Notes under the pieces: generated by a model
What the model was told of the DNA's origin: nothing
Database searches by the model: none
What the model saw: the letters and a program-made list of their open reading frames with translations, nothing else
Shown: positions 3,755 to 46,582 of the stretch, piece after piece
How the letters are laid out: each line of letters begins with the position of its first letter
Numbering within the stretch: position 1 is the stretch's first letter
Source: an uncultured bacterium
GTDB lineage: Bacteria > Zixibacteria > MSB-5A5 > GN15 > FEB-12
Reading direction: 5' to 3'
Assembly (NCBI GenBank): GCA_965603125.1
Contig: CBFDBU010000010.1
Location: 8,734 to 72,733, forward strand
DNA length: 64,000 bases
Made by a program: the position numbers and the translations under genes

Positions 3755-4084
3755 GGGGTTACCCCAAAACCTGGAACAGAATACATGACAGCAACTGCCT
3801 TCCGCTACGGGTCGTTTCCACTCCGTCATTCATGCTCTTCTGTTATCTCTGGCAGAAGCCAGTATCCAGTCCTCGAATCCAACCTGGATTCCTTGTCAAG
3901 CCCGGAATGACGAAGGTGTTCACGTGAGAGGCAGCCTCTCCCTGCCCAAAACAACGGTACTCCCTTCAGCCCTTCATAAGAGAAGTTTGAAACAACACCA
4001 GAATATTCCGATACGAACACCACCGGTCGCAGTGTTGACCGGCAGGATTCAAAAATACCTGGTTTATTTGAAAAACTTACTCCA

Positions 4085-5311
4085 TTAACCACCGCAACCG
4101 CTACTGAGAGTGACCGCTTGTGTTGATTCAGCCTTCAAATCCTGTTTCTTTTCCTTGATTGGTTTAGATACTGGATTCTTGGGGTCTGATGTATATCCCA
4201 GAAAGCCACCCTTAATGGATTTAACATTCTTGTATTTGAGACGTTCCACCAGGCTTTCACCGGCCAAAGCAGCACGTCCACCTTTTTTACAATAAAGGAT
4301 GATGTCTTTATCTTTATCCTCAACAGTATTCAGGATTTTGAACTCAAGTAGACCACGAGGAATGCTAATAGCGTTAGGGATATAACCTTCTCCATATTCA
4401 GCTTCTTGTCTTACATCAATTAATACGAAATCTTTTCCCTCTTTTACCATTGCTTTGTAATCATCTACAGAGATCTCTGTTATTCTTTTCTTCGCTTCCG
4501 CGACCATGGCCTTAACTTTGGGGGTGGGAATAGCGGCAGCTTCCGACCATGCTTTCCAGCCACCTGCAATTGACTTCACGTTATTATATTTAAGACGTTT
4601 AAGTCTTTCAGCAGCTAAAGCAGCACGCCCGCCGTTTTTACAATATAGTATGATATTTGCATCTTTGTTGGGATATTTTTTTGTGATCTCGAATTCAAGC
4701 AAGCCACGGGGAATATTGACAGAACCAACGACATTACCGGCTTTGAATTCTTGGGGCTCACGAACATCAATCAAAACGAATTTTGCTTTCTTTGCCATCA
4801 GTGTTTTTAAGTCTGCGGGCGTGATTTCCGTTAGCGTCGCCTTCGAAGCTTTGACCATCCGTATAACTTCTTCGGGCATCTGTTGTTTTTCAGGTACCGG
4901 AGCAGCTTCAACCCATGCCTTCCAGCCACCGGCTATGGATCTGACATTATTATACTTAAGTTGACCCAAGGCTCTGGTAGCTAAAGAGGCACGTCCACCG
5001 TTTTTGCAATAGAGAACGATATTGCTATTTCTGTCCGCATACTTCTCGGTGATTTTAAACTCCAGTAAACCACGAGGAATATTAGTAGCGCCCGGAATAT
5101 GGCCGGCTGAATATTCCCCTGCTGTGCGGACGTCAATCAGTACATACTCCTCCTTCCCCATTACGTTTGCAAAGTCATCGACTGAAATCTCAGTTATTTT
5201 GGTTCTGGTCGCCTCTACCAATTGCCCAGCATTATCAAACTGACCTTCACAACCGGAAACCAAAACAAGTACTGCGAACAGTAATACAAAATTAATAATA
5301 ACTTTTTTCAT
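4085..5311 (-). CDS. lipoprotein with three tandem rhodanese domains and a C-terminal ...SSGCGG tail
   Basis: The start is taken at MKKVIINFVLLFAVLVLVSGC (lipobox LVSGC, Cys21), giving 408 aa. Three rhodanese modules each carry an active-site loop: CKNGGR (C102), CKNGGR (C224) and CKKGGR (C341). The 34-aa K/P/S-rich tail ends AVTLSSGCGG-stop. Confidence 0.8.
   Translation of the reverse strand: MKKVIINFVLLFAVLVLVSGCEGQFDNAGQLVEATRTKITEISVDDFANVMGKEEYVLIDVRTAGEYSAGHIPGATNIPRGLLEFKITEKYADRNSNIVLYCKNGGRASLATRALGQLKYNNVRSIAGGWKAWVEAAPVPEKQQMPEEVIRMVKASKATLTEITPADLKTLMAKKAKFVLIDVREPQEFKAGNVVGSVNIPRGLLEFEITKKYPNKDANIILYCKNGGRAALAAERLKRLKYNNVKSIAGGWKAWSEAAAIPTPKVKAMVAEAKKRITEISVDDYKAMVKEGKDFVLIDVRQEAEYGEGYIPNAISIPRGLLEFKILNTVEDKDKDIILYCKKGGRAALAGESLVERLKYKNVKSIKGGFLGYTSDPKNPVSKPIKEKKQDLKAESTQAVTLSSGCGG
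4190..5197 (-). repeat. three-fold tandem repeat of a ~97-aa rhodanese module (period ~118-121 aa, ~360 nt)
   Basis: The modules span aa 39-135, 160-256 and 278-374. They share ITEI(S/T)..D...LIDVR...E(Y/F)..G...(G/N)..NIPRGLLEF.I......D..I(V/I)LYCK.GGRA......L..LKY.NV.SI.GG. The similarity is also visible at DNA level. Confidence 0.8.
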
Positions 5312-5409
5312 TGCTTTTTCCTTTCTTCTTTTAAAAGAGACAAACGCCGACTGCCGGCAAAACTTCTCCATGTAAATGACATTATTTGGTTAAGCATCAA
5401 GAACTCAAA

Positions 5410-6621
5410 CTAATATGCACTAAACTTCCCGGTTTTTTCATTCCATTTAACAAAGAGATACCATATTAACAAAATCGCCAATACAAGGACGACCGACCAT
5501 ATATAGCCGATATAGTCAGGCATAAAGTTTCTAAAACGTGTAGAATGAGGTAAAAGCTTAACAAATCCCGGTTCAATATAATTCTTTGTTATGGGAGAAA
5601 TGAGTAAAAATCCAAGGGCGGCTGCCCATAATTTAATCTGTCCTTCTCCGAATCTCCATAGTGTTCCGACTGCGCAACCACCCGCTATTGTCATGCCAAG
5701 ACCAAAAATGAATCCGCCGATTGGAGCCCTCAGCCAGAAATTAGGAAATACCCATGTCAACTCTCTGTAACGTAAGGATAGATCACCTGCTCCAACTCCG
5801 AATTGTTTTATCAGTGTAAACCCTATAAGTCCGATCAATAGACCAGCTATTATACCGACTGTGCTGGATGATTTTCCGGTCATAAAAGGATCGCGGAATG
5901 ATGCCACAATGCAGAATCTTGAGCGTTGGCAAATCATTCCCAGCAAAAGACCAATAATTACAAACCAGGCCATTATCTTATTTGTTCCGGAATAGTTGTA
6001 CGCTATAACAAACACCATAATGGTCACAATAAGGCCCAGCCATTTCTGCCAAGCCCCCTTACCCTCAGAAGCAGCTAAAAGTGTCTTACTTTTACCTGAA
6101 CTGATACCGGGTAAGTGTTCCATTTCCCACATGAGGTATTTTAGGGCCACTAATGTACCTAAAAACAGACCTACCGTTAATAATATTGCTCCCCCTGAAA
6201 GAGCAGGCACTCCACTAAAAAATCCACCAATAGTGCATCCGATACCTAATATAGCCCCGATCGCCATTAAACCCCCGCCGATAAATCCTTTAATTAACTC
6301 TCCAACAGGTGGAATTCTCAGGGCAAACTCCTTTGCCAAAAGAGCACCTACAAAAGCTCCGAGAATAATCAGAATATTCAACATTCCATATAAGCTGTCA
6401 CTTATTGAGGTAACATTTTCTATTCCCAATACTCCCAGTGCCTGATACAGATTTTCTCCCCAATTATTATAGCCACCACTACCGCCCCATGGGCTCTTAA
6501 TCATAAAGAGAAACACATTAAGCAACCCCAGCAAAATTCCTCCAACCCAGACAGGCCAATGTTTTGAGAAAAATGTACGAAAGAGTTGGCTTAATGCAGA
6601 TTTGTTTGATTCTTGTTCCAT
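5410..6621 (-). CDS. YeeE/YedE-family inner-membrane sulfur (thiosulfate) transporter
   Basis: 403 aa and polytopic. It has the three conserved Cys contexts of the family: GIGCTIGGF, MICQRSRFCIV and IAGGCAVGTLW. A TusA-like gene lies immediately upstream in the same operon. Confidence 0.8.
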   Translation of the reverse strand: MEQESNKSALSQLFRTFFSKHWPVWVGGILLGLLNVFLFMIKSPWGGSGGYNNWGENLYQALGVLGIENVTSISDSLYGMLNILIILGAFVGALLAKEFALRIPPVGELIKGFIGGGLMAIGAILGIGCTIGGFFSGVPALSGGAILLTVGLFLGTLVALKYLMWEMEHLPGISSGKSKTLLAASEGKGAWQKWLGLIVTIMVFVIAYNYSGTNKIMAWFVIIGLLLGMICQRSRFCIVASFRDPFMTGKSSSTVGIIAGLLIGLIGFTLIKQFGVGAGDLSLRYRELTWVFPNFWLRAPIGGFIFGLGMTIAGGCAVGTLWRFGEGQIKLWAAALGFLLISPITKNYIEPGFVKLLPHSTRFRNFMPDYIGYIWSVVLVLAILLIWYLFVKWNEKTGKFSAY

Positions 6622-6637
6622 AATAATCTATCCTCTC

Positions 6638-6874
6638 TCACTTCTTCTTGATTACAAAGCGAAAAACACCCCCTTCTAATTCACTCTCATCAAGAAGAGT
6701 ATTCCCTGTCTTCCCGCACCATGAATGCAAATCTGTTTTTGTTCCGGGGTCTGTACCCAACATTTCAAGCACCTGCTCTGATTTGAGCCCCTTCATTGCT
6801 TTTGACAATTTCATAATTGGCATGGGACAGGTGAGACCTTTTACATCCAAAGTTACGTCAATTTTTGTTTCCAT
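6638..6874 (-). CDS. TusA/SirA-like sulfurtransferase (YeeD-type partner of YeeE)
   Basis: 78 aa with the LDVKGLTCPMPIMKLSKAMKGL (CPxP) motif. AAGGAGAAATGAG precedes the ATG. Confidence 0.8.
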   Translation of the reverse strand: METKIDVTLDVKGLTCPMPIMKLSKAMKGLKSEQVLEMLGTDPGTKTDLHSWCGKTGNTLLDESELEGGVFRFVIKKK

Positions 6875-7114
6875 CTCATTTCTCCTTTTGTTGAGTGGTG
6901 AACAGTCAGTTGCTATAAATCATGTCCTCTTTTAAGGGAATTATTGAAATTTTCGGAGAAAAAACAATAAAATGCCCTTTGAAGCAAGTAGATTTTTTAT
7001 CAAATCACAGGTAGAATTGCCTCAAATTAAGTGTTAGCGAAGAGTGATGGATTTGATCTGGGAATTGTCACATGGCCTCATATTCAGTGTTTCCGGATGG
7101 AGACAAGAATATAA

Positions 7115-7198
7115 TGCCGAAGGGGGGACTCGAACCCCCACTCCCTTGCGAGAACTGCGCCCTGAACGCAGCGTGTCTACCGATTTCACCACTTCGGC
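7115..7198 (-). tRNA. tRNA-Leu (anticodon CAG)
   Basis: The reverse complement is GCCGAAGTGGTGAAATCGGTAGACACGCTGCGTTCAGGGCGCAGTTCTCGCAAGGGAGTGGGGGTTCGAGTCCCCCCTTCGGCA. The 7-bp acceptor stem is GCCGAAG/CTTCGGC. The anticodon stem is CTGCG/CGCAG with loop TTCAGGG. It has a long variable arm, a T-arm GGGGG-TTCGAGT-CCCCC, and is 84 nt long. Confidence 0.9.
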
Positions 7199-7368
7199 AT
7201 CAGCGTCCCAAGCCGTTAGACGACCGGTCCCGGAGACCTCCGCCAATATACCAGTATCCCTCAGATACGCAACATGAATTCCGGTCAGCATACGCATTTG
7301 CTTGATTCCCGGGATTGTACGCCGTAACTTGCTGCAACCTGAAACAGCACCGTAGCTTGAGTCTGCCC

Positions 7369-9042
7369 ATGCCTGTCAGATCACTGCAATGGATTCGCGT
7401 CCGCCTCGGCTCCCACAAAACCCAGGGCAGGTACCTCCGCTTCGCGGCCATACTTCTGCCTTTCTGCGCCTACCTGTTCCTGGCCACAGGCCTTTCCGAC
7501 TGGATTATTGACGACGCCGGCATCACCTTCTCATACTCGCGCTCTCTTAGCCAGGGGCATGGGCTCGTGTCTCAACCGGGCATGGAACCCGTGGAAGGGT
7601 ATTCCAATCCTCTGTGGATGCTGACTATGGTCCCCTTCTTCTTGGGCGGTATCTTTCATCCCTACATCGTTCCCAAACTGATCAGCTATGTCCTGGTGGC
7701 ATTGACATTCTGGCTGCTTCATCGGCTCGTTTCAAGATTGACGGGCGATTTCCTGCCGGCCACATTCGCAGCACTCTCGTTGTTGTCGGTGAATTCCTCT
7801 TTCGTGATATGGACCTGCTCGGGCCTGGAGAACCCCCTGTACGCAGCTCTGATCGTTGGCTTGACGTATCTGCATGTTGAATGGGCTGCCGGCAGCTGTT
7901 CCTGTGAGCACGCCCCGATCATGTCGGCCCTGCTGGCTTGCGCCATCGCCATGACGCGACCGGACGGCGTCGTTTACGCCACCCTCTTCCCCCTTGCGCT
8001 GGTGATTGGATTCAGACCAGGCGGGAACCGCTCAAGGCGTATGCTGCTCCGGGGTCTCGCAGTGTATGTATCCACGTTTGTCGTGGTATTTGGAGCATTC
8101 ATCTTGTTTCGATACCTCTATTTCCACGAATTGCACCCGAATACTTACTACGTCAAGGGGGGGCCTACTCTCGATATTGCTGTGCAGGCGCTAACTCTGC
8201 AGGGAGGATACTTGAACAAGTCCTACCTCCTGGTTCACAGTATACTGGGGCCGGTATTCTGGTGGCTGATCCCCATCGGCTGCATCGTGCTCCTAGTGAG
8301 CGCACTTTACCGCGTAGCGCGATGGCGAGAGTCAGTCGTTCTAACTGCTGGCACGCTCCTGACCGCATACGTCTTCCTGATCCTGAGCGAAGACTGGATG
8401 GGGGAGTATCGTTTCGCGACACCATTCTTCCCGCTGGCGTGTTGTTGTCTGGTTGTCTTTGTCCATGTTGTCCTCACCGCCATTGTTCGCGGCAAAGCGC
8501 GTCTCCTGGGTATCGGCTCAGCAGTCTTTGTGACACTGCTGATCTTAAGTGTTGACCTGCATTATCCGCGCATTCAGCACTACGTGAGATCGAAGCCGGT
8601 ATCCTTCGAACGCATAGCCAACCGATTCGGAAAGCGGTTCAACGATTACGCGGCTTTCCTCCAGGTACCGGATGCTTCCTTCCTGGTGCCGGATATGGGC
8701 GGCACCTTGTACTACTCAAAACTGCGTATCCATGACCTGGCCGGGCTGTGTGACAAGACCATTGCCCGTACCAGGGGCAGAGACCAGCAGCGTTTTTACG
8801 ATCATGTCTTCAAGGAACTCAAGCCGACATTTATCCATACGCACGGGTATTTCACAGCGGTTTCGAAATTCGACGACGACCCCCGTTTTTCCAGCGACTA
8901 CGTATCAATCAACGAGTATGTCGACAAGCACGTCGAGACCAGGTATGGCGAAACCCGAATCTCGGGGGATTTCGTAAGGAAAGATATCGCCGCCGACAAA
9001 GAGGCTCAACTTGATTCACTTCGCCAGGGACTGGCCCCATGA
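7369..9042 (+). CDS. polytopic GT-C-type membrane glycosyltransferase (family not resolved)
   Basis: Many TM segments. The first loop motif is IIDDAGITFSYSRSL..GHGL....EPVEGYSNPLWML. It is a paralogue of 9109..11235. The start is taken at ATG 7369; the ORF track begins at a TTG at 7315. Confidence 0.55.
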   Translation: MPVRSLQWIRVRLGSHKTQGRYLRFAAILLPFCAYLFLATGLSDWIIDDAGITFSYSRSLSQGHGLVSQPGMEPVEGYSNPLWMLTMVPFFLGGIFHPYIVPKLISYVLVALTFWLLHRLVSRLTGDFLPATFAALSLLSVNSSFVIWTCSGLENPLYAALIVGLTYLHVEWAAGSCSCEHAPIMSALLACAIAMTRPDGVVYATLFPLALVIGFRPGGNRSRRMLLRGLAVYVSTFVVVFGAFILFRYLYFHELHPNTYYVKGGPTLDIAVQALTLQGGYLNKSYLLVHSILGPVFWWLIPIGCIVLLVSALYRVARWRESVVLTAGTLLTAYVFLILSEDWMGEYRFATPFFPLACCCLVVFVHVVLTAIVRGKARLLGIGSAVFVTLLILSVDLHYPRIQHYVRSKPVSFERIANRFGKRFNDYAAFLQVPDASFLVPDMGGTLYYSKLRIHDLAGLCDKTIARTRGRDQQRFYDHVFKELKPTFIHTHGYFTAVSKFDDDPRFSSDYVSINEYVDKHVETRYGETRISGDFVRKDIAADKEAQLDSLRQGLAP

Positions 9043-9108: not shown

Positions 9109-11235
9109 CTACGGCGAAACGTCAAGCAGCCTGAGATGACCAACGCTGTAGAGATCATCTCCCGAATCAGGTTTGACTATGATCCTGTTGTATCCAACCT
9201 TACAAGCGTCTTCCGGTACTTCCAGTGAATCAACCCTCAAACCGCCCAGCTCATTGTCCTGTCTTCTGATACTGTGGAAACCCAGTTCCGTGGAGTCACG
9301 GAAAAACGCGACCGTGTAGTAGTCATTGTGGTCAACGCTGATCTCGAACCGGTTATTCGTGAAAACGGAGTCCAACAGAATGTGCAGACCACCGGACCGA
9401 AGGACGTAATTCCCCTCTTCATTCCAAACCGTCCCCTCTTCCTTGGGTACGCTGATTTCGGCGTAGCTTACTGTCAGCGTAGAAGGATCGGTATAACCAC
9501 TCAAGAGGCAGTCATACGCACCTGTATTCATTCTCCAAATGGCGACCCATCGCTGAGTATCGAGCAGGTCACCGCGTGTTATCAGCAGAAGCTTGTCGTA
9601 GTACGCGGCCACGTTCGTATCGGCGATCATGTTTTCGCCCACTTTCAGGCCCTGCACATACTTAAAGGGCGCTATTCGGGAGAAATGCCCAACGCGCCAG
9701 TCCCGCAACTTATTGGTGGGTAATCTGGCCAGGAGTGGTTCGGTCAGCCCGTAGCCATCGTAGACGTGTATGTCCGGCCCGGCATAAAAGCCAGCGAACC
9801 CTACACACCCGGTGGCGGAAAAATCGTCTCCTTTCAGTCGTAACCTCTTGCCGTCGTCGGCCCACTTGTGGGCAGGCATCTCTTTAGTCCTTTGTGTCCG
9901 GAGCAGTCCCGTTGACTGATAGTACCATCCGCGCTCGTCGGCAATGCCTTTCTCGTTGATCCCCGCTTCCCCATGCGTGCCGTACGTCTTGTCACTCAGA
10001 AGCGGTGGACGAGGCGACGCCAATCCAAGAACAGCCACGACGACTACGGGAATAAGCCTCCCGGCCAATGTTTCGGGGATGGGATACCTCGAGATGAGCG
10101 CCAGCGACGCTACGAACGGCACGGCAAAGAAGCGCCCGCTCATGAAATCACCCCCGATGCTGACGATGTAGAGCAGGTACAATCCGATCCCAACCGAAAC
10201 CGGTAGACTCCTGCGGTCCCGCGTCAGGATCACCAGAAGGATACCGGCAATGATCACGATCAGTGTCAGAGGATCGAGGTTCAGAGTCTCCAGATAGTAG
10301 ATCAGTCCCTGGTACAGGCGCTCCGCAACCGGAATACCCGAATGGAGTTTGGCATAGTATGTGTTGGGAAATGGAAACCCATAGTAGACCATTGAGAACA
10401 GTTCCCACAATATGAATGGTGCGAAACCAGCGACTGCGGTAAGGAGCGCTCGAAAAGATCTCAGCCTCACGAACATGCCCACCAGCACCGGGAGATACAG
10501 CAGGAGCGTATCCATGCGGTTCAGAGCGGCCAGGCCGGCCAGCACACATAGGGGAAAGAAGACTCTCTCGTCTTCCTTTGCCCCGAAGTATACACACAAG
10601 AAGCCAGCCAAGATCAGGTAGCTCAGGGGATTTTCAAGTCCGGAAGTGGCGTAGTCGATGAAGGCCTTGGAAAACAGCGCGGCGGCGAGGACGAGGAGCG
10701 CTCCCGACAGAGATCGGCTTATTTTGAGGGACACGATCAGAATGGCAGACAGTGTGACAACGATCGACACGATAATACTCGTGAAATACAGTTCACCGGT
10801 AATGATATAGAACCCGGACATCAGGAAAACCCACAGTGGATTGGTAAACGCCTGAACCCGCTCGTCAGTATTCCAGGTAAGACCATAGCCGTTGACGAAG
10901 TTGTCAACCGTCCGGAAGGAAATGTACGCGTCGTCGCACACCCATGCATTCCTCAGTATCACGACGATGATAACAAGAACGAAAAGCCCAATCAGGATTG
11001 AGGCGTGATTCTCAGCGCGTCTTGGTGTACCCATTAATCCATAGTACAAACCGACCCATTTCAGAGCAAGCTCTTTTGCCTCCCGGCGTGGGGCCTGTTG
11101 AAAAAGTCGCAGTAGCTGGCCGCCGAAGCATTGTTGCTGGTGCTGCCAGGCGTCTCTGCCTGGCAGTAACGCAAATCCAAAGAGGCATCGGGCAGAGACA
11201 CTCGACGCCACCCCTTGGAGTACGTTTTTCAGCAA
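9109..11235 (-). CDS. polytopic GT-C-type membrane glycosyltransferase with a ~230-aa C-terminal soluble domain
   Basis: The motif VCDDAYISFRTVDNFVNGYGLTWNTDERVQAFTNPLWVFLM aligns with the paralogue at 7369..9042. There are about 12 TM segments. The real start is possibly MGTPRRAEN at 11034. Confidence 0.55.
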   Translation of the reverse strand: MLKNVLQGVASSVSARCLFGFALLPGRDAWQHQQQCFGGQLLRLFQQAPRREAKELALKWVGLYYGLMGTPRRAENHASILIGLFVLVIIVVILRNAWVCDDAYISFRTVDNFVNGYGLTWNTDERVQAFTNPLWVFLMSGFYIITGELYFTSIIVSIVVTLSAILIVSLKISRSLSGALLVLAAALFSKAFIDYATSGLENPLSYLILAGFLCVYFGAKEDERVFFPLCVLAGLAALNRMDTLLLYLPVLVGMFVRLRSFRALLTAVAGFAPFILWELFSMVYYGFPFPNTYYAKLHSGIPVAERLYQGLIYYLETLNLDPLTLIVIIAGILLVILTRDRRSLPVSVGIGLYLLYIVSIGGDFMSGRFFAVPFVASLALISRYPIPETLAGRLIPVVVVAVLGLASPRPPLLSDKTYGTHGEAGINEKGIADERGWYYQSTGLLRTQRTKEMPAHKWADDGKRLRLKGDDFSATGCVGFAGFYAGPDIHVYDGYGLTEPLLARLPTNKLRDWRVGHFSRIAPFKYVQGLKVGENMIADTNVAAYYDKLLLITRGDLLDTQRWVAIWRMNTGAYDCLLSGYTDPSTLTVSYAEISVPKEEGTVWNEEGNYVLRSGGLHILLDSVFTNNRFEISVDHNDYYTVAFFRDSTELGFHSIRRQDNELGGLRVDSLEVPEDACKVGYNRIIVKPDSGDDLYSVGHLRLLDVSP

Positions 11236-34662: not shown

Positions 34663-37600
34663 TCAGTCTGACATGAGAAATATAACAAATTTTGTCCCCT
34701 TGTCAATCTCAGATTCGACGGCAACGTCACCGTCGTACAGTTCAGCTATCTTCCTGACCATAGCCAACCCCAGGCCGGTGCCGAAGGTCGGCTTCGTGCT
34801 GTAAAACGCGTCGAATACTCGCGGTATTTCTTCGCCGGGGATGCCGCATCCGGTGTCGGCGAACTCCACCTTGAGGCGTTGGCCTTCCTTCCGAGCTGAA
34901 ATGTCCAGAACGCGCACCGGGGTGTCCCGCATGGCATCCAGGGCATTGACCGTCAGGTTGTTAAACAGGCTGTGAACATGTGGCCGGAAGCTCCGCAAGG
35001 TGAAATGATCCGCGATCTCGAGGTTAACGCTGACGCCCAATTCATGAATACGCAGCTCATGACTCTCCAGGACCTCCAGGAGGACCGACCGCAGGTTGAC
35101 CCCCTCAGTCTTCTTCTGCGACTCAAGTTTCGAGAACTGGGTCACCAGTCCGGTCATGTCGATTGCCCGCTCCACGGCGCTCTCGGTCAGGCCCAGCAGC
35201 TTTCGGTTGCGACGGATTTCCTCCACCTCCCCGAGGTGGAGCCGCTCTTTCAGCTTGTGAAGGCTGCTGGTGGCGGGGAAGAGGGCGTTGTAAATCTCGT
35301 GCGCCACGCCACCGGCAATCCGCTTGACCTGGTCATATCGTTCCCTGTTGGCTGCGGCCAGTTTTCTCTCTGCTTCTCGGTGCTTGGTGATGTCAATGAT
35401 GATCCCCCTCAGGCCCGCTGCGCTGCTGTCGACAACGATCCGATCGGTGTAGATCATGACCGGGAAGGTGCTACCGTCCTTCCTGAGCACAGTGTATTCA
35501 CTGCCGCTGATCCCATCCCCGTTGAGCGTCCTGTCTATGTCTTCCCGGACCCTGTCGCGGTCCTCGGAAACAAACAGATCGAGAGCATTCAAGCCCTTAT
35601 CCAGGTCTGTCTTCGCGTAACCGGTGGTCTCGAAACCATGCTGGTTGGCGAAGGTGAAACTGCCGTCGCGGTCCATTTCGAACAGAGTCAGGGGCAGAAG
35701 TTCGGCCAATTCACGGAACTTCTTCTCGCTCTTGCGAAGCGCCTCCTCCGCTACTCTGCGCATAGTCACATCATGGGCAATGACAAGCGCGGCCGTCGTT
35801 GTGCCCTGGGCATCCCGGTACGGCTGAAGGTTAGTATGGAACCACCGCCACCGGCCGTCGACAAAGCTTCTGGACTCCGTGGTGAGTTCCGTTTTGGATT
35901 CGATAACACGGCGGATATTCCGCATCTGTCTGTCGGCTACGTCCTTCGGAAAGAGGTCCCATTGCGATTTGCCGGCAATCTCGTCCGATTTCCGGTTAAG
36001 CGCCCTTGCGGCATTCTCGTTGACGAAAAGGAACTTGCCTTCCCAACTGACCAGGGCGATGGCGGCCCCGACGTTCTGTACCAGCAGACGGTATTTCTCT
36101 TCGCTTGCGCGGATGGCCTCTTCAGCGCGTATGCGTTCGGTTACGTCGCGACAGAACCCAATGACTGCGTCCTGGCCGCCGAACTTCTGTCGCGAACTGC
36201 TGATATCAACATAGATCACTCTGCCGTCCTTGCGCACCATGGGCAGCTGCGATACGAGGCGACGGGCATCGATGGTTGCACGCCGGAACTCAGAAAGGGC
36301 GTGCTGAACCTGTGACTTGGGGATAAGATCGCCCACGCGCATCTGCAGCAACTCTGTCCGGGAGTATCCCAACATGCGGCACATCGCAGGATTGGCGTAG
36401 ATGTATTTCCGGGTTTTCGCGCCGGCGGCCAGAATGCCGTCCGTAGACGATTCGGCCAGCGTAACGTAGCGCTGATCGCTTTCCCTGAGAGCCTGGTGAG
36501 CCAATCTGCGCTCCGTGATATCCTGGCCCACGGCAATAGCGGTGAGCTCCTCCGAGTCGGCTGAAAAGAGAGCCGAATTGGACCACAGAATGGTCCTGGT
36601 TTCACCAGACCTTGTCCTGAGCGGGCCTTCATACATGTTGCGGGGGTTCTGCCTCACCCAGTCAGCGAAACTCATCGGGTGATGGTGATGGTGTTCGGTG
36701 GGCAGGAATATCTCCGGCCAGCTCTTGCCGATGACTTCCTCGCGCGAGTACCCGGTGACCTTCTCGATCTCCCGGTTGAAGACCGTTATCCTGGCCTGGC
36801 CGTCAAGGCAGACAATCAGGCTGTTGGCCGTATCCAAGAGCGAGTGTATGAAATCTCGTTCGCTCTGAAGTTCCTGCTGTGTTTGAACCAGGGCAGTGAT
36901 GTCACGCGAAATCACGAGAACCGACGCAACGGCGTTCGCCTTGTCCCTGATCGGTTCCATGCTGGTAAGGTATCGGGTCTTCTTGCCCTGCGACTCAATG
37001 TCCGACTCAAAAACGACACCGCTCCCGGTCTCGAATACTCCGGTAATGCGCTCTATGAACTGGGATGCCTGATCATGGAGCATGCAGTCCCGTATCGTGC
37101 TTCCGATGAGTTCCCGAGGGTCCCGGCCGAACACTTCGGCGCTGACATTATTGAGGTATAAGAAAACTCCTTCGCGGTCTACGGTGAAGATCGCCTCATG
37201 GGCGCTCTCCACCAGGGTGCGATATCTCTGTTCGCTTACCCTCAGGGCCTCATCCGTTCGTTCTCTCTGCGTGATGTCACGCGCCACGCCCTCCGACCCG
37301 ATAACGACGCCGTCTCTGTCTCTTAAGAGGGTGGCGCTGATACTCACGATCACGCGGCGACCGTCGCGGGCGATGAGTTCGGCATCGAAGTCGGTTACCT
37401 TACCGGATTGTCTCAGGAGCCGGTTGTACTGCTCGCGCCGGTCAGGATCTGCGTAAAAGCTGCGGGCCTCCTTGCCCACCATATCATCCTGAGAATCATA
37501 GCCCAGGACTCGGACGCCACCCGGAGACACCCACTGGACGCGACCGTGTGAGTCGATCTTGAAAAAGATATCCTGAGTGCTTTCTAAGATGGAGCGGAGT

Positions 37601-39114
37601 TGTTCCCGGCTCTTTGCCAAACGGCGAGCAGTCTTCTGCCGATAGGCGTTGACAATAACCAGCGCCAGGAGAAGGGCGAACAGCCCTATCAGAACAAAGT
37701 TCTGGTACTCCCAGAACAATATCCTGGCGTAATCACCGAACACCTTGCGTTTCACACTGACGACCGTGGCCGTATTGTCGCGAGTGGCGATGAACGAAAC
37801 GACGTGACCCTCGTTATCGAGTACGGTCGGGTGGAAGTGACGAAAATCGGTATCAAGGTGTGCCAGACGTTTGAACGCGGACGAATACAGCCCCATCCCG
37901 TCGCCTGCTGTGAAGAGGTAAGCCGGTCGCATCTGACCCTCAACGCGCACCGTATCCAGGAAGTGCTCCAAATCGGTCTCGTGCGATTGGGCCAGGAGAG
38001 TCAGGTTGTCATCGTAGATGCGGACGATGCCGCGTGACGAGAGAGTATAGAAGTCCACCGTGCCGTCACCGTCGTAATCATCCCGCCATCCACTTCTGAT
38101 ACGCTCGCCGACATCGACGGTTTTCAGAAGCCGGCCGTCCCGGTCGATTTTCGACAACTGGTACCGGTGGGGTGGCAGGTCGGCGGCTTGGTCGGGTTCG
38201 ATCATTGGCAGGGCGTGAAACACATAGAAGCACTCATCCCGCTCGCTGTGCCAGATCCCCTTGCTGCCGTGTTCCTCGGACAGTATACGACGAAAGAGCA
38301 GTCTGCCCCGGCTGTCGACTTTGGCCAGGTAGCAGAAACGGTCGCTGAAGTTCTCGTCCTCGACGCTGTTCTTGTAGTTGTAGGTCGCGAACATCACGGC
38401 CGGGTGAAGTGAGTCCCGGCAACTGAGGATATTACCGACACTGACCGGGGCCGCCACCGGCAGGGACCATTCGAGACGCAGGTTTTCCGGCTCGACACAG
38501 TATAGAATACGCGGCCTCAAGTCACGTCCCGGATCCAGGTAGAAGAACACCTCCTGAATACCGTCGTAGTCATAGTCATCGACCAATACCGGCGAGACCC
38601 GTCCTTCCCAGACCCCGTTACCGGTGAGGTCCTCTCCGGATGCCAGATAGATGAGATCGTGACGATCGGCCCGTGGCACAATCCTCACCATGAAAGCAGA
38701 ATCGTTGCGGTAGCATCCGGCGGCGATAGCTAAGCATCCCGCCTTACCGTCATAATAGAGGCGAAAGCCTGAGACAGTCGCATACAGCGGATCCCAATCC
38801 AGAACCTGGGAGTGAGTGATATCGTTGAAACTGAACACAGCCGGTTCGTCGCGGTTGACGTCACCGTTAAAAGCGTGAACGAGAAGAGCCGTGTCCGACA
38901 CGGCGTCCTGCACCCGATAGACCTGCATGGCATCGGAGACAGGGATTTTCCCGACGCCCCAGTCATGGAAGTGCCGTTCACGGAAAGTGTACGGGAGCAA
39001 CCGATCATCGCAGGCGCAGTCGATTTCAATCTCGTCGACAGTCCCGGCAGCGGCATTGAGCGTCAGAAGGCATACGAGCGCTGGTACGGCCGTTTTCAAA
39101 TACTCGTTCAACAT
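34663..39114 (-). CDS. giant sensor histidine kinase: ~465-aa periplasmic domain with FG-GAP-like motifs, one TM, six PAS domains, HisKA and HATPase_c
   Basis: 1483 aa with a signal/TM N-terminus. Periplasmic motifs are VDDYDYDGIQEVFFY and RDDYDGDGTVDFYTL. The TM segment is FVLIGLFALLLALVIVNAY. There are six PAS repeats, each ending ..(A/G)RDIT.R... The H-box is IAGGVAHEIYNAL. The N and G boxes are NLTVNALDAM, DTGCGI and GTGLGL. A 33-nt gap separates it from the response regulator gene. Confidence 0.85.
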   Translation of the reverse strand: MLNEYLKTAVPALVCLLTLNAAAGTVDEIEIDCACDDRLLPYTFRERHFHDWGVGKIPVSDAMQVYRVQDAVSDTALLVHAFNGDVNRDEPAVFSFNDITHSQVLDWDPLYATVSGFRLYYDGKAGCLAIAAGCYRNDSAFMVRIVPRADRHDLIYLASGEDLTGNGVWEGRVSPVLVDDYDYDGIQEVFFYLDPGRDLRPRILYCVEPENLRLEWSLPVAAPVSVGNILSCRDSLHPAVMFATYNYKNSVEDENFSDRFCYLAKVDSRGRLLFRRILSEEHGSKGIWHSERDECFYVFHALPMIEPDQAADLPPHRYQLSKIDRDGRLLKTVDVGERIRSGWRDDYDGDGTVDFYTLSSRGIVRIYDDNLTLLAQSHETDLEHFLDTVRVEGQMRPAYLFTAGDGMGLYSSAFKRLAHLDTDFRHFHPTVLDNEGHVVSFIATRDNTATVVSVKRKVFGDYARILFWEYQNFVLIGLFALLLALVIVNAYRQKTARRLAKSREQLRSILESTQDIFFKIDSHGRVQWVSPGGVRVLGYDSQDDMVGKEARSFYADPDRREQYNRLLRQSGKVTDFDAELIARDGRRVIVSISATLLRDRDGVVIGSEGVARDITQRERTDEALRVSEQRYRTLVESAHEAIFTVDREGVFLYLNNVSAEVFGRDPRELIGSTIRDCMLHDQASQFIERITGVFETGSGVVFESDIESQGKKTRYLTSMEPIRDKANAVASVLVISRDITALVQTQQELQSERDFIHSLLDTANSLIVCLDGQARITVFNREIEKVTGYSREEVIGKSWPEIFLPTEHHHHHPMSFADWVRQNPRNMYEGPLRTRSGETRTILWSNSALFSADSEELTAIAVGQDITERRLAHQALRESDQRYVTLAESSTDGILAAGAKTRKYIYANPAMCRMLGYSRTELLQMRVGDLIPKSQVQHALSEFRRATIDARRLVSQLPMVRKDGRVIYVDISSSRQKFGGQDAVIGFCRDVTERIRAEEAIRASEEKYRLLVQNVGAAIALVSWEGKFLFVNENAARALNRKSDEIAGKSQWDLFPKDVADRQMRNIRRVIESKTELTTESRSFVDGRWRWFHTNLQPYRDAQGTTTAALVIAHDVTMRRVAEEALRKSEKKFRELAELLPLTLFEMDRDGSFTFANQHGFETTGYAKTDLDKGLNALDLFVSEDRDRVREDIDRTLNGDGISGSEYTVLRKDGSTFPVMIYTDRIVVDSSAAGLRGIIIDITKHREAERKLAAANRERYDQVKRIAGGVAHEIYNALFPATSSLHKLKERLHLGEVEEIRRNRKLLGLTESAVERAIDMTGLVTQFSKLESQKKTEGVNLRSVLLEVLESHELRIHELGVSVNLEIADHFTLRSFRPHVHSLFNNLTVNALDAMRDTPVRVLDISARKEGQRLKVEFADTGCGIPGEEIPRVFDAFYSTKPTFGTGLGLAMVRKIAELYDGDVAVESEIDKGTKFVIFLMSD

Positions 39115-39279
39115 GAATACCTGACAAGATACGCAACCCGCACAAGAAAATCAACGTTCCGGAACCGATTCCTACTCAACTGTCACCGAGAGGCTCTTAT
39201 GCGGACACGGCGCATGACGAGTTGTCTCATGTGGTCGCGGGGCTGAATCCGGCGCTCGAGAAAACGCTCGCGACAACTG

Positions 39280-39312
39280 AAAAGGTCACCACAGACAACG
39301 GTTGTGGTGACC
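39280..39312 (-). terminator. rho-independent terminator between the giant FG-GAP gene and the kinase gene
   Basis: The minus strand reads GGTCACCACA-ACCGTTGTC-TGTGGTGACC (perfect 10-bp stem) followed by TTTTCAGTT. It starts about 42 nt after the stop at 39354. Confidence 0.6.
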
Positions 39313-39353
39313 GATGTAGTCCGTCGAGCGGCAGAAGAATCCGGCGCCGGCAA

Positions 39354-42300
39354 TCAGAGATCGCAGATAGGCTCCGGGCCATTCACAAACATGTAGTCGA
39401 CCAGGTAAACCAGATCAGCAATGTCAATCAGAGTTCCATTCTCACCGTCCATATTGGCCGCTCGCAGGTCCGGCGGCTCCGGGCCCTGGTTGAACATGTA
39501 GTCGACCAGATAGACCAGATCGGCGATATCGATGACTTCCTGCCAGTCACCGTTGACGTCGCCGCATATGTATTCCTCGTCCTTGTTCAGGAGCAACGAC
39601 ATATCCTGAGTGTTCTCGTTGACGGTTACCAGATCGAGATCGCCGTCGCCGTCGAAATCCGCCGCTACGACAACTTGGGGATTGATACCTGTCGCATACT
39701 GTCTGGAGGAGTTGTATATGCCGCCGCCGCTGTTTCTGAGAACGGATACGTCGTTGGACACGCCGTTGGCCGTGGCCAGGTCAATGTCGCCATCACCGTC
39801 GAGATCAGCCGCGACAAGCGAGTAGGGGATATCTCCAACATCGTATGTCGCACCGGGACTAAAGCTGCCTTCGCCGTTGTTGTAGAGGACGGAGACGTCA
39901 CCGGAGGTAACGTTGGCGGCGGCCAGGTCAAGCCGGTCGTTCCCGGTCAGATCAGCCGCAAAGACGGACTGCGGGAACACACCTACGGGGTAGACCACAG
40001 CAGGCGCGAAAACGCCGTTGCCGTTGTTCATCAGGATGGATACGCTGCCGTCGAACTTGTTGGCCGTTACCAGGTCGATATCACCATCGTTGTCGAAATC
40101 GCCGGCGAATATGCAGTAAGGATGGTCGCCCACGACATAGGCCGAGTCCAGGGTGAAAACACCGAGGCCGTCGTTCTTGAGGATCGTGACACTGTCCTCG
40201 CCCGTGTTGGCCGTAGCCAGGTCAAGGTCTCCGTCACCGTCGAGGTCGGCGGCAAAGAGCGAGCGGGGGTTAAGGCCGACCTGATACGTGACTTCGTTAC
40301 CGAAGTCTCCTGTCCCGTCATTTATCAGGATCGTGACACTGTCCTCGCCCCCGTTGGCCGTGGCTAGGTCCATGTCGTCGTCTCCGTCAAAGTCGCCGGA
40401 GAAAACCGAATAGGGACTGTTGCCTACGCTGTAGGTCGCATCCAAAACGAAGGTGCTGTCTCCGGCATTGAGCATGATCGAAACAGTGTGAAAGAGTAGG
40501 TTGGCAGTAGCGATATCCAGGTGGCCGTCGCCGTCAAAATCAGCGGCAAAGGCGCCCCGGGGGCTGACACCGATGGAGTTGTCGAGATGGTCCCCGAAGG
40601 AGCCGGCGCTTCTGACAGCCCGGGCTGTGAACGACCAGACTCGACCGCTGTCCAAGGGGTAGCCTTCGGCGGAATTGACCTCGGGAAGCAGCACCGCCGT
40701 GACGACCTCACCGGCCTTGAATGTCGAGTCGGGATGGAAAGACGCCGTCCTGGACGGAGCGTCGTAACTGAATGAACCGTGCTGGAGTCCCTTTGACTTC
40801 GCCATGACTATCAGCGATGAACTGTTGAAGGACGACGCCTCGACATCATCATTGAAAGTCACGGAGATGTCGGCGTCGGATGCAATGTCCGCCCTGTTGG
40901 GTGGCGGCCAGACCGATGCTATCTGGAACAGAGCGCGGTTCCAGAGCACGGAGACGGTGTTGGCCGACGCGTTAGCGACAACCAGGTCGATATCTCCGTC
41001 AATCTGAAGGTCGGCGGCAAAGACCGACAACGGCCCCTCGCCGGCGTCGTAAGCGGCGTGTTCGGCAAAAGTACCGTCGTCGTTGTTCAGCAGGACGGAG
41101 ACGGAGGCGGAGCCGAAGTTAGCTGTGGTCAGGTCAAGGTCGCCATCGGCGTCCAGGTCGGCGGTGGCAATTGAGAGAGGCTCGCTGCCGACGGCGTAGT
41201 TCACGCAGTCCGCAAATGTGCCGTCCTGATTGCTGATAAGAATGGAGACGCTGTCGGTACTGTGGTCTGCCGTCGCCAGGTCGAGATGGCCGTCATCATT
41301 GAGGTCGGCGGCCAGCAGCGCCATCGGGCCGCCGTCGACAGAATAGGCCGAATCCAGATTGAAACCGGTGCCATCGCCGTTGTTCAGAAGCAGTGATACA
41401 GTTCCAGAAGAATCGGCTGTCGCCAGATCCAGGGCGCCGTCATCGTTGAGATCGGCGGCACAGACAGACTGCGGCGACAGGCCCGTCTCATAGACCGACT
41501 GCTCGGCGAAAGTGCTGTCGCCGTTGTTGAGCAGCACTGATACGTTGCTGGAAAGCATATTCACCACCCCGAGATCGACGTATCCGTCTCCACTGAGGTC
41601 AGCGGCAAAGACCGATCGGGGCTTCGAACCAACAACGACCTTGGTCTGGGTGGCAAAGGTGCCGTTACCATTATTTAGCAGGATGGAGACACTGTCTTCA
41701 TCATAGTTCGCACTCACCAGGTCGAGACTGCCGTTGCCATCCATATCGGCAGCGACAACCGAGATCGGATTGTCGCCGACCTCGTAGAGAGCTTGCGGGC
41801 TGAAGGTGCCATCGCCGTTGCTCAGCAGGACAGACAGGCTGTCCGATGCCGCGTTTGCTACAACCAGGTCCGGAAAGGCGTCATCATTGAGACAAGCGGC
41901 AATCACACAGGTAGGCTCCTCTTTCACCTCATAAGCGGAATCGACGGCGAAGGTGCCGATGCCTTCATTGACTATCGTTGTGAACGACCAGGTGTGGCTG
42001 GTGTCAAGGGGGTAGTCCTGAATCGACTTGACATCGGAAGTAACGATCATCGTGACTACCTCGCCGTGGTCGAAATTAACGACGGGATCAAACGTGGCGG
42101 TCATGGTCGGGTCATCATAGCTGATTGTCCCCGAATGTTTGCCCGTCAGGCTCGAGTACACTACAAATGAGGAATCGTGGAAACTGTCGCCGTTCATACT
42201 GTAGTTGAAGGTTACCGAGATGTCCGTGGAAGGAGGGAGGTTCAACTCGTTGGGCGCCGGTGTCAGTTCCGTGATCTCAACGATGGCTCGATTCACGATT

Positions 42301-45300
42301 ACGGAAACGTCGTTGGAATTAGAGTTGGCGGTGGCAAAATCCATGTCACCGTCGTTGTCGAAATCAGCGGCAAAGACAGATGTGGGGTAGTTACCGACCG
42401 GAAACGATATAAACTCAGTGAAAGTGCCATTGCCGTTGTTGGTGAGAACCAGCAGATCGTTGCTGTTACTGTTCGCCACCACGAGGTCGAGGAAACCGTC
42501 GCCGTCGACGTCGGCTGCGAATACGGAAGACGGCCTGTCGCCGACGGCGTACCTGACCGTATCGACGAAGGTGCCGTCCTGTTTGTTCCTGAGAAACGAG
42601 ATACTGTCACCTTTGGCGTTTGCAGTCACCAGGTCAACGTAGTCGTCGCCGGTGAACTCGGCTGCAATCACGCACACCGGGTCAAGACCGGCCACATACG
42701 CAGAGTCGAGGACAAATTCGCCGAAGCCGTTGTTCATCAGTACCGAAACGCTGTCGTGAAGGATGTTGGCGGTAACCAGGTCCAGGTCGTTGTCGTTGTC
42801 GAGGTCCGCGGCAACTACTGACTGCGGACTTATTCCCACCGCGAAATCACTGGGGCTGCCAAAGGTGCCGTCACCGTTACCGACCAGCAGCGACACGTCG
42901 TTGGAACCCTCGTTGGAAGTGACCAGGTCGAGCTTGCCGTCCCCGTTGAGATCGGCGGCCAGGATACCGCCGGGATCGTCTCCGGTAGTGTACTCAACGT
43001 GAGCGGCAAAGCCGCCGCCTTCCTGGAGCAGCACTGAGACCTGGCTCGTGTTTCTATCGGCAGTAGCCAGATCGAGCAGGCCGTTACCATCCAGATCAGC
43101 CGCCACCACGGAGGCCGGACCGGAGGAGACTTCAAGGACGATATCGGGAAGGAAGGTACCGTCCCTGTCATTCAGCAGGATAGAGACGCTGTTGGTGTCG
43201 GTGTTTGCGACCACCAGATCCAGAAAGTCGTCGTCGTTAATATAGGCTGAAAAGACCGAGGAGGGTTTCTCCCGCACCGGGTAGACCACTTGAGGACCAT
43301 AGGTGTCCGACCCGTGGAGGGCCTCGGTCGTAAAGGACCAGATAAAAGCGGTGTCAAGAGAATAGCCCTCGAGAGTCTTGACGTCAGTTGTGAGCACGAC
43401 CGTGACGAGTTCGCCCTCCTTGAAATCCACGTCAGGGTCGAGAGTCGCCGTCTGATCGTTGTAAGCAATGACACCCTGGTGCCGACCCGTGGAGCGAGCA
43501 TTGACCACGAATGAGGTGGCGGTGATGGTCGCGTCATCCATATCCACGTCAAAAGTCACGGAGATGTCAGTTGCAACGGGTGTGTTTTTCGCGTTGGGCT
43601 CCGGTGACACGGACACGACATGGGGAATTGCCCGGTTGAAGAAAACCGTCACGGTGGAGTCGTATCTATCCGCCGTTGCCAGGTCAACATCACCGTCGCC
43701 GTCGTAGTCGGCGGCAAAGAGTGAATTGGGAGCTTCCCCGGTCGGAAAAAGCGACGGTGCCGAGAAGTTGCTAGCACCATCGTTGAGGAGTACGGCAATG
43801 TCATCGGATTCGAAGTTGGCCACTGCCAGGTCCAGATCCCCATCACCGTCGTAGTCGGCGGCCGCGACCTGGGACGGATTGTTACCGGCCTCGTACAGTT
43901 GCTGAGTGCCGAAAGTGCCGTCCTGGTTGTTCAGGAGAACCGAAACATCGTCGGACAGGCCGTTTGCCGTGACCAGGTCAGGAAGGGTGTCGCCGTTGAC
44001 GTCGACTGCAATAACGGAATAGGGTATAGTGCCCACCATGTACCAAGCCTGGTCGGAGAAGTCGCCCTCGCCATCGCTCAGGAGAACCGAGACCCTGGCG
44101 GTGGCATCGTGCGAGACAGCCAGGTCAACGGCGCCATCCAGATTAAAGTCTTCCGCGCAGATGGAGTGGTTCTGCCAACTGACGGGGACAACTGTCCGCG
44201 GATCGAACCCGCCCTGGCCGTCGTTCCAAAGGATAGAAATCTCAGCGGCATTGTGTTGAGAGGTCGCCAGATCAGGATAGCCGTCGGCGTTCAAATCGAT
44301 CGCCACGACGCTGAACGGTTGAGTACCTACAGCGTACCGCAGATGCTGTTGATAGGTGCCGTCCCCATTATTCAGCAAGACAGACACATTGTTACCGTAC
44401 TGGTTGGCAGTAACCAGGTCCATATAGCCGTCACGGTCGATATCAGCGGCCACCACGCAATACGGAGCTTGGCCGACCGGGTATTGCGAATCAACGGCAT
44501 ACGTGCCGTCCCCGTTGTTGAAAAGGACCGAGACACTGTCGGACATCCATTCGGCAGTAGCCATGTCGATGTCTCCGTCACCATCGAGGTCGGCCGCGAA
44601 AACCGACGCCGGAGCATCGTTCACCGCGTAGGCGGAGTCAACGGCAAAGGTGCCGAAGCCGCCGTCCACGGCGGTTGTGAAGGTCCAGGTCAGAGCACTC
44701 TCCACGGGAAACCCCTCGGATGTGAGGATGCCCTCGGTAGCCACAACCGTTACCGGCTCGCCGGCGCTGAAGTCAGTGCCGGGGTCAGCGGTGGCTGTCT
44801 GGGAGGGGCCGTCGTAGCTGATTGCGGCCGAGGATGGACCGGAGGATCGCCCGGTTATGACCAGGCTGCTACCGTCAATGGACGAGCCGTTCATCTCGGC
44901 ATCGAAAGTCACGGTGACATCCGTAGCGACGGAGACGTTCAGTTCTCCCGGCTCCGGCGTGACATCCACAATCTGAGCAATCGTCCTGTTGAGCAGAACC
45001 GACACCTCATCGGAGTTTGCGTCGGCGGTAACCAAATCAACACCGCCGAAAGCATCTATGTCCGCGGCGCAGATAGAGTACGGATACGCACCCGTTGGAA
45101 AGAAGCTGCTTGAGCCGAAGACGCCGCTCCCGTTGTTGTGCATGATCGAGATATTGTCGGTGTCCCGGTTACACGTGGCCAGATCCATGTCACCGTCACC
45201 GTCGACATCAGCAGCAACGACAGAACTGGGGTAATCACCGACAGCATAATTCACGGCTGCTGCAAAGCCGCCGGCACCGTTGTTTATCAGCACCGAAACG

Positions 45301-46421: not shown

Positions 46422-46582
46422 GATCGCTCCTTATTATCAAAGCAGTGCTTATCTTCAGTCCTGTTTTCCGATTCATCGGGCGTCGTCGCTCCCGATCGAC
46501 CGGTCACGGATCCCGCGACTTCAGCGGGACCCGCTAAACCTATCCGTTCATTCTCCTTTCCATGTTCATGCCCGGCTCCACT

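Follow-up and report, generated by a model that had tools for sequence, protein, structure and literature searches.

What purpose could be served by a cysteine placed two residues before the carboxyl end of a rhodanese that is predicted to be exported, and whose gene lies beside a candidate sulfur channel? The question is raised by a 64,000-nucleotide stretch of DNA (hereafter the window) from an uncultured Zixibacteria bacterium (contig CBFDBU010000010.1, assembly GCA_965603125.1), which encodes a lipoprotein of 408 amino acids (aa) with three rhodanese domains and a flexible tail ending in G-C-G-G-COOH. The gene occupies positions 4085-5311 on the minus strand, stop codon included, and is accompanied by genes for a YedE/YeeE-family membrane transporter and a TusA-family sulfur carrier. 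The way in which YeeE/YedE/SoxT-type proteins bring sulfur from the periplasm to the cytoplasm is a recognized gap in knowledge, the passage being described as occurring "by unknown means" (PMC11582611). Judging from sequence, we put at about 0.5 the probability that the tail would act as a self-loading persulfide carrier arm, feeding the cysteine-lined YedE-like channel and TusA.

The tail comprises 34 codons (SDPKNPVSKPIKEKKQDLKAESTQAVTLSSGCGG, encoded by 4088-4189) and ends in SSGCGG, the final codons being AGC GGT TGC GGT GGT TAA; letters and translation agree exactly with the description in an earlier note on this DNA, which had proposed that the lipoprotein could load sulfur onto its own tail. 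It consists of a flexible linker (aa 375-404; 4100-4189, minus strand), with a conserved proximal SDPKNPVSKPI and a variable middle part (alignment A1), and of the terminal motif (aa 405-408; 4088-4099, minus strand; Cys406 codon at 4094-4096), followed by TAA at 4085-4087. Among the eight closest complete homologues and one identical entry (63-100% identity, two of the nine labelled Zixibacteria by NCBI) the GCGG end is present in 9/9, as SSGCGG in seven and as GGGCGG and SGGCGG in one each, the exact GGCGG being found in P0008 and P0009. The mid-linker is wholly different among these orthologues (e.g., KEKKQDLKAESTQAVTL vs. EENGGKKADKAKPPPP), the glycine codons alternate between GGT and GGC, and the stop codon between TAA and TGA. 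Linker divergence, synonymous glycine codons and a changed stop together indicate that the amino-acid sequence of the tail is held by purifying selection. The next homologues (37-40% identity) end straight after the third rhodanese domain and possess no tail.

The protein that bears this arm was delimited by open reading frame (ORF), Pfam and orthologues (P0001-P0009). The longest ORF around the gene covers 4085-5371 (minus strand), and the ATG at 5311 (MKK start), which yields 408 aa, is backed by orthologues and an upstream AAGGA ribosome-binding site. Some gene callers begin 20-23 residues earlier, within 5312-5371 (minus strand), giving 428-431 aa (P0003, P0403); we disfavor that start because it buries the signal peptide and because of the agreement just mentioned. 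There are five cysteines in all: C21, C102, C224, C341 and C406. The first is the predicted lipidated residue in LVSGC of a signal peptide with lipobox (MKKVIINFVLLFAVLVLVSGC; 5249-5311, minus strand), which by inspection fits the pattern [LVI][ASTVI][GAS]C and is kept in the orthologues. The next three lie in the loops C102-KNGGR (4991-5008), C224-KNGGR (4625-4642) and C341-KKGGR (4274-4291) of rhodanese domains 1 (aa 44-135; 4907-5182), 2 (about aa 166-257; 4541-4816) and 3 (about aa 283-374; 4190-4465), all on the minus strand, so that both Pfam and the sequence bear out the three domains with CK(N/K)GGR loops that had been read there. Pfam reports PF00581 three times and nothing else (E = 2.9e-66, 220.7 bits vs. 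a cut-off of 22.2), and all three Cys-x4-Arg catalytic loops are intact and invariant or nearly so in alignments A1 and A2. Domain and loop tests place the protein in the rhodanese family, with predicted sulfane transfer activity. Its domains find their best NCBIfam-level match in the rhodanese domains of MoeB/MoeZ. In an AlphaFold2 model (30-sequence alignment; mean predicted local distance difference test score, pLDDT, of 82) the three domains are modelled confidently, while residues 386-408 have pLDDT < 50 and are thus predicted to be disordered. A fold search of this model against the PDB returned generic multi-rhodanese entries only, with low global template-modelling scores that we attribute to the flexible arrangement of the domains.

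We found that the window protein is not alone in this design. A full-library search with it as query recovered further exported rhodaneses with low-complexity tails ending in GGCG, EGCG or EGCE, and each of the five looked up lies beside a TusA gene, a transporter gene closely related to that of the window, or both. For a systematic view, loci were surveyed with the transporter alignment as query, using one genome per GTDB species, and the best 80 of 547 relatives (57-92% identity) were kept. They come from Zixibacteria, Ignavibacteriales, many Bacteroidales, other Bacteroidota, Cloacimonadota, Calditrichota and some metagenome-assembled genomes with a delta-proteobacterial label. In 75/75 loci with space for a complete downstream gene there is at least one rhodanese ending Cys-x(0-2)-COOH, in 68 of these 75 it is the gene directly after the transporter, and 44 of the surveyed loci hold two or more armed rhodaneses. 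Such an ending occurs in 119/196 rhodanese ORFs of the surveyed loci, and as a control, G-C-x(0-2) ends were found in 0/811 non-rhodanese ORFs of at least 100 aa from the same loci. When the 119 armed proteins are compared over their final five residues, GGCGG is commonest (67), ahead of SGCGG (18), SGGCG (10) and GGCGD (8); rarer are APEGC (4), AGCGG (3), EGGCG (3) and GGCGE (2), besides four singletons. Tails have a median length of 22 residues, with a net charge of -3. A lipobox-like N-terminus in 104/119 of them, like the lipoprotein signal conserved in the orthologues, is in line with the export that the earlier note had predicted. As to domain count, 114/119 armed proteins are single-domain (about 160 aa) and 5/119 are triple, all in the clade of the window protein. 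The three window domains share 51-57% identity among themselves and 52-55% with single-domain armed rhodaneses, which implies that the window protein is an internal triplication with the arm retained.

In turn, a family profile built from 13 single-domain members matched 4295 proteins at E <= 1e-10, and among the matches listed the Cys-x(0-2) ending is shared by 119/119 new top clusters, with GGCGG in 82. Across the 238 armed relatives that were scored, the cysteine is never more than three residues from the free carboxyl end. The tail is therefore not a random one: its conservation in the orthologues and across the armed family is one of the points on which the earlier note had staked its proposal beforehand. 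We ruled out a chance C-terminus on the grounds of the conserved ending, the synonymous codon change and the 0/811 control. A second lipobox (LSSGC) at the C-terminus was likewise ruled out, since orthologues have PPSGGGCGG and relatives show acidic or glycine contexts. Two odd arm or rhodanese variants were seen at L076 4937-5425 and L033 2413-2964: one arm ends in GGCGGSI, four residues past the cysteine, and one adjacent rhodanese ends in GAGE, with alanine in place of cysteine, the second copy in that locus keeping GGCGG. A selenocysteine arm was sought by stop read-through in seven adjacent armless rhodaneses, and no TGA-Gly-Gly continuation was found. The database names of profile matches are "rhodanese-like domain-containing protein," "rhodanese-related sulfurtransferase," "hypothetical" and, once, "adenylyltransferase/sulfurtransferase," and we found no Pfam or NCBIfam model specific to armed rhodaneses. 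As for the suggestion that a rhodanese fused to such an arm was new, a literature search of incomplete coverage found no description of one, so that an earlier description may exist elsewhere; the fusion is, on the other hand, no one-off, but belongs to a large and mostly single-domain family. The armed rhodanese joins two known principles, the rhodanese and the cysteine swinging arm, and ties them to a transporter.

The genetic context of the arm is as constant as the arm itself. The transporter gene (5410-6621, minus strand) encodes 403 aa with C129, C237 and C316 (PF04143, E = 3.7e-50, 171.7 bits), and the tusA gene (6638-6874, minus strand) a cytoplasmic carrier of 78 aa with Cys16 in CPMP (PF01206, E = 4e-23, 81.5 bits). 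We observed tusA directly upstream of the transporter in 78/80 surveyed loci; together with the 75/75 loci that carry an armed rhodanese, this makes the cassette linkage far stronger than the earlier note, which had recommended looking for co-occurrence with yeeE/tusA, could have known. On the orthologue contigs, tusA, transporter and rhodanese genes are always found together and in constant order, with surrounding genes that vary by contig, and the three-gene cassette spans at least five named lineages.

A route for sulfur can be proposed from this arrangement. The lipoprotein would be anchored in the periplasm, where the three rhodanese active-site cysteines would draw sulfane sulfur from an external donor, possibly polysulfide, elemental sulfur or thiosulfate. 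The sulfur would then move to Cys406 on the arm, which would hold it covalently as a persulfide or short polysulfide and, at about 34 residues, might be long enough for any of the three active sites. The loaded arm could offer its sulfur at the periplasmic mouth of the YedE-like channel, whose C129, C316 and C237 would relay it to Cys16 of TusA in the cytoplasm. A precedent for a carrier arm exists in SoxY, in which the GGCGG at the carboxyl end has a cysteine that binds sulfur (PMC6067878), and a published proposal has the SoxY cysteine hand sulfur to a YeeE-like channel and onward to TusA (PMC11582611).

Several points weigh against a carrier arm of this kind. According to two reports, the YeeE of Spirochaeta thermophila takes up free thiosulfate and forms no covalent bonds with it (PMC11582611, PMC13047784). 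The single-chain AlphaFold2 model docks the arm nowhere with confidence, and the check that had been suggested, whether the tail reaches the active-site loops, returned a disordered tail. The lipid anchor may lie in either membrane, and a relay would require the arm to extend to the inner one. The residues after the arm cysteine vary among relatives (none, G, GG, GD or GE), so any recognition of the arm must be loose, and the Zixibacteria linker is mixed or basic, as opposed to acidic in most relatives. Lastly, the best score of the transporter is to a selenium-linked YedE/FdhT model.

Evidence that speaks for a carrier comes from arms that are found without a catalytic loop. While the Cys-x4-Arg/Lys loop is retained in 59/63 armed copies next to the transporter, the distal, "type B" armed copy has no canonical Cys-x4-Arg loop in 42/51 and nevertheless retains the arm (GGCGG). 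At the position of VYCKVGGRG, type B proteins have, for instance, VIGNEMGSG or IYSQTVDR. Examples of such copies are located at L034 10644-11147, L018 2563-3198 and L022 7855-8373; in some the cysteine is displaced inside the loop (YNYSDDC), and they share a conserved FPE(L/I)(I/V)E.G motif directly before the linker. Retention on copies that have lost the catalytic loop indicates that the arm is functional in itself, and a conserved arm on a seemingly dead scaffold is what is expected of a carrier. Arms also occur on a separate protein. The tail-less triple rhodanese P0010 is encoded in a locus with YeeE, TusA and YTD genes and multihaem cytochromes, and is followed by an exported protein of 143 aa (L005 3098-3529) whose relatives in Desulfovibrio ferrophilus, Desulfocurvus and others end in EEGC-COOH. 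Members of this family (P0121-P0137, about 104-147 aa, exported, TPR-like) have no Pfam match; a variable Pro/Ala/Glu linker precedes the EEGC-COOH end of every complete one (EDEGC in one case), and P0014 and P0157 are fusions of the protein to a rhodanese. The EEGC gene sits between the tail-less triple rhodanese gene and the YeeE-TusA-YTD genes, among genes for multihaem cytochrome and Rieske/cytochrome b proteins. Whether on an enzyme, on a dead domain or on a separate protein, some arm is thus always present.

These observations bear at once on the strongest of the rival explanations, which we still regard as unlikely. According to it, the arm is a tethered thiol co-substrate that stands in for glutathione in a thiol-poor periplasm, its role being to accept or resolve the persulfide of the rhodanese. 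The outcome could be the conversion of thiosulfate to sulfide and sulfite, or the passage of S8 via arm polysulfide to thiosulfate through rhodanese and sulfite, and it would be a free small molecule, not the arm, that crosses the YedE-like channel. Rhodaneses in general use thiol acceptors, the cysteine with its following Gly-COOH is reminiscent of how glutathione ends in Cys-Gly, and the cationic CK(K/N)GGR loops would attract acidic tails. The import of free thiosulfate by S. thermophila YeeE fits as well, and periplasmic rhodaneses have been proposed as thiosulfate makers for YeeE (PMC13047784). Yet the persistence of the arm on loop-less copies is better explained by a carrier, even if such arms could still serve neighboring active rhodaneses, and the near-obligate adjacency of the channel is explained no better by a co-substrate than by a carrier.

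The neighbor had been named as a YeeE/TusA importer: PF04143 and TusA genes are indeed present, but the architecture of the transporter is nearer to YedE/FdhT than to TsuA/YeeE. Its top NCBIfam match, end to end, is the YedE/FdhT model at 132.9 bits against a cut-off of 350, while TsuA models score 104.6 against 400 and 76.5 against 645; falling below the cut-offs of both, it represents a distinct subfamily. The transporter exceeds S. thermophila YeeE (6LEO) in length by about 75 aa, and an alignment of the two shows its halves exchanged: YeeE 6-121 (the N-terminal half) corresponds to residues 221-346 and YeeE 242-322 (the C-terminal half) to residues 79-158. All three conserved cysteine motifs of 6LEO are kept, as QRSRFC237, AGGC316 and GIGC129.

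The likeness to YedE/FdhT, a selenium metabolism model, is also an argument for a second and improbable rival, namely that selenium is handled instead of sulfur, with the arm cysteine and a catalytic cysteine binding selenite-derived selenium as S-Se-S for a YedE-type importer and its YedF/TusA-like partner. A rhodanese is able to carry selenium, the rhodaneses weakly match the ExtH and "rhodanese-related (seleno)protein" models, and a porin encoded in Bacteroidales loci matches only ExtI, the NCBIfam porin of selenite/tellurite operons. All the same, the scores are far under the curated cut-offs (46.6 vs. 150, besides the 132.9 vs. 350 of the transporter), and there are no selenium genes in the window. 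The larger loci hold genes for a DsrE-like protein, another TusA and MvhD/HdrA-like proteins, as is characteristic of dissimilatory sulfur handling (PMC8542988), related loci contain the YTD sulfur cluster, and a multi-protein, multi-copy system seems oversized for a trace element.

We consider it more improbable still that the arm cysteine has a regulatory or protective role, forming a reversible disulfide with a catalytic cysteine against over-oxidation or as an off-switch. Resolving cysteines are common in thiol enzymes, and a flexible tail with one cysteine could get to the active sites; but the arm persists on domains that have no canonical catalytic cysteine and is found on the non-rhodanese EEGC protein, a single arm cannot shield three sites simultaneously, and the prevalence of GGCGG, like the cysteine near the free carboxyl end in 238/238 relatives, would be left unexplained. 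A chance low-complexity end, which conservation and the 0/811 control exclude, or a thiocarboxylated ThiS/MoaD-like Gly-Gly end can be dismissed almost entirely, for although the window protein ends in Gly-Gly and its domains score best against those of MoeB/MoeZ, thiocarboxylation depends on a beta-grasp fold and on an E1 enzyme that is cytoplasmic and ATP-dependent, the window protein is by prediction an exported rhodanese-fold lipoprotein, and in many relatives the final residues are GCG, GCGD or GC instead of GG.

Returning to the persulfide carrier arm, one of its closest counterparts among known systems is SoxY. Both are periplasmic, by prediction in our case, and each has one cysteine, putatively reactive in the window protein, on a flexible peptide at the C-terminus that ends in GGCGG-COOH in SoxY (PMC6067878) and in SGCGG in the window protein, and for both a YeeE-like channel and TusA are proposed as downstream acceptors (PMC11582611). 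The comparison drawn in the earlier note with a SoxY-type arm therefore stands for the terminal motif, which is shared, and falls for the domain: among Pfam and NCBIfam matches at E <= 0.01 there is no SoxY domain and rhodanese models only. The resemblance is thus one of motif and not of homology, and the SoxY-like ending is probably convergent. Unlike SoxY, the armed rhodanese has no SoxZ partner and is predicted to be exported by a Sec/lipoprotein signal, and we saw no sox genes (soxZ, SoxAX, SoxB) near the cassette in the window or in the related loci examined. With the arm placed on a rhodanese, loading would be a non-oxidative sulfane transfer, in contrast to the oxidative conjugation of thiosulfate catalyzed by SoxAX.

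Exported rhodaneses such as Wolinella Sud (1QXN), PspE, Escherichia coli YnjE, SoxL and Geobacter ExtH have in common with the window protein the fold, the six-residue cysteine loop and an extracytoplasmic location, as well as roles in thiosulfate, polysulfide or selenite handling. YnjE resembles it in having three domains, although only one of these is reportedly catalytic, as against three intact loops in the window protein, and ExtH in being a lipoprotein encoded beside a porin, as in the Bacteroidales loci. We know of no C-terminal cysteine arm described for any of the five, and none of them is described within a tusA-yedE cassette. Like the window, the TsuA/YeeE-TsuB/YeeD and SoxT-TusA pairs combine a PF04143 protein that has three channel cysteines with a TusA-family gene next to it; the window transporter differs from them in its scores below the TsuA cut-offs, its length of about 400 aa and its halves, reversed relative to S. 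thermophila YeeE. Characterized TsuA/SoxT pairs lack an armed periplasmic rhodanese, whereas the window subfamily is accompanied by one in every locus with room for it. DsrC/TusE proteins are sulfur carriers too, with a conserved penultimate cysteine on a flexible C-terminal arm, but they are cytoplasmic, of another fold, non-homologous and devoid of a rhodanese domain.

In Bacteroidales the cassette is embedded in a bigger, conserved locus with some 10 genes, as exemplified by L034 5755-13206 on a closed chromosome (OY762280.1), with similar loci among L027-L081. After the gene for a Crp-family regulator come, in order, tusA, transporter, armed rhodanese A, a lipoprotein with two rhodanese domains, porin, another two-domain rhodanese, armed rhodanese B, DsrE-like protein, second TusA, MvhD/FlpD-like and HdrA-like genes, and the sole NCBIfam match of the porin is ExtI. 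The mature N-terminus of the two-domain lipoprotein, C-K-D-D, resembles the surface-export signal of Bacteroidota. By its gene content this locus looks like a sulfur uptake route from the outside to the cytoplasm. In a study of Cloacimonadota, the clustering of a rhodanese bearing a signal peptide with TusA, the transporter and Hdr was noted, whereas the arm went unremarked (PMC8542988). A wider view, which we advance tentatively and with clearly less confidence than the carrier function of the tail, is that anaerobes (Bacteroidales, Cloacimonadota, Zixibacteria and Calditrichota) possess a widespread, Sox-independent and wholly protein-bound sulfur relay that releases no free intermediate. 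In such a relay rhodaneses would capture sulfane sulfur, GGCGG arms would carry it, and the cysteine ladder of the YedE-like channel would thread the persulfide to TusA; in Bacteroidales, the first steps would fall to a rhodanese lipoprotein that is probably exposed on the cell surface and to a dedicated porin.

As for the window itself, the cassette region (4000-7000) has a G+C content of about 42% (38-46%), as compared with 55-58% (52-63%) in the flanks, and it is abutted by a gene for tRNA-Leu(CAG) at 7114-7199 (minus strand). A dip of 7-12 points in G+C content is also present at the Zixibacteria orthologue loci L001, L004 and L006. Low G+C content and the adjoining tRNA-Leu suggest that the cassette was laterally acquired; no common word of at least 10 nucleotides (nt) that could be an integration-site repeat was found between the tRNA-Leu side and the far cassette edge. 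The gap between the transporter and rhodanese genes is 98 nt long, vs. 3-33 nt in most relatives, and contains a terminator-like hairpin (5345-5359, minus strand; TGCCGGCAGTCGGCG) followed by a T-rich run, which may adjust the relative amounts in which the two proteins are made. A promoter and terminator scan gave values near those of shuffled sequence.

Beside the cassette, two genes for multi-pass membrane proteins face each other (7315-9042, plus strand, 575 aa; 9109-11235, minus strand, 708 aa); neither product has a Pfam match at E <= 1e-5, and by eye both have a glycosyltransferase-type look. Three very large consecutive genes occupy 34663-51880 (minus strand) and encode, respectively, a histidine kinase of 1483 aa with at least five PAS domains, a protein of 2355 aa in which about 26 FG-GAP repeats are combined with five Big_5 domains, and a protein of 1765 aa with PKD, a dockerin-like domain and DUF7619. 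The ten other large window genes that were scanned have housekeeping, signaling or cell-surface products, with no sulfur-metabolism gene among them.

Taken at its predicted function, the cassette suggests a hitherto undescribed route by which sulfur enters anaerobic bacteria. The cargo across YeeE/YedE/SoxT-type channels may be free thiosulfate or protein-bound sulfane sulfur, and by holding a SoxY-type arm, a possible loader, a channel and an acceptor in three adjacent genes, the cassette offers a minimal system for this question. The recurrence of a glycine-flanked cysteine beside a free carboxylate suggests a general solution for carrying sulfur that has arisen more than once. With 4295 profile matches, and with 547 transporter relatives among GTDB species representatives, the armed rhodanese family is large, and its members are common in uncultured lineages of sediments and anoxic waters. 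As they are annotated merely as "rhodanese-like," sulfur uptake in these lineages may be missed in metabolic reconstructions.

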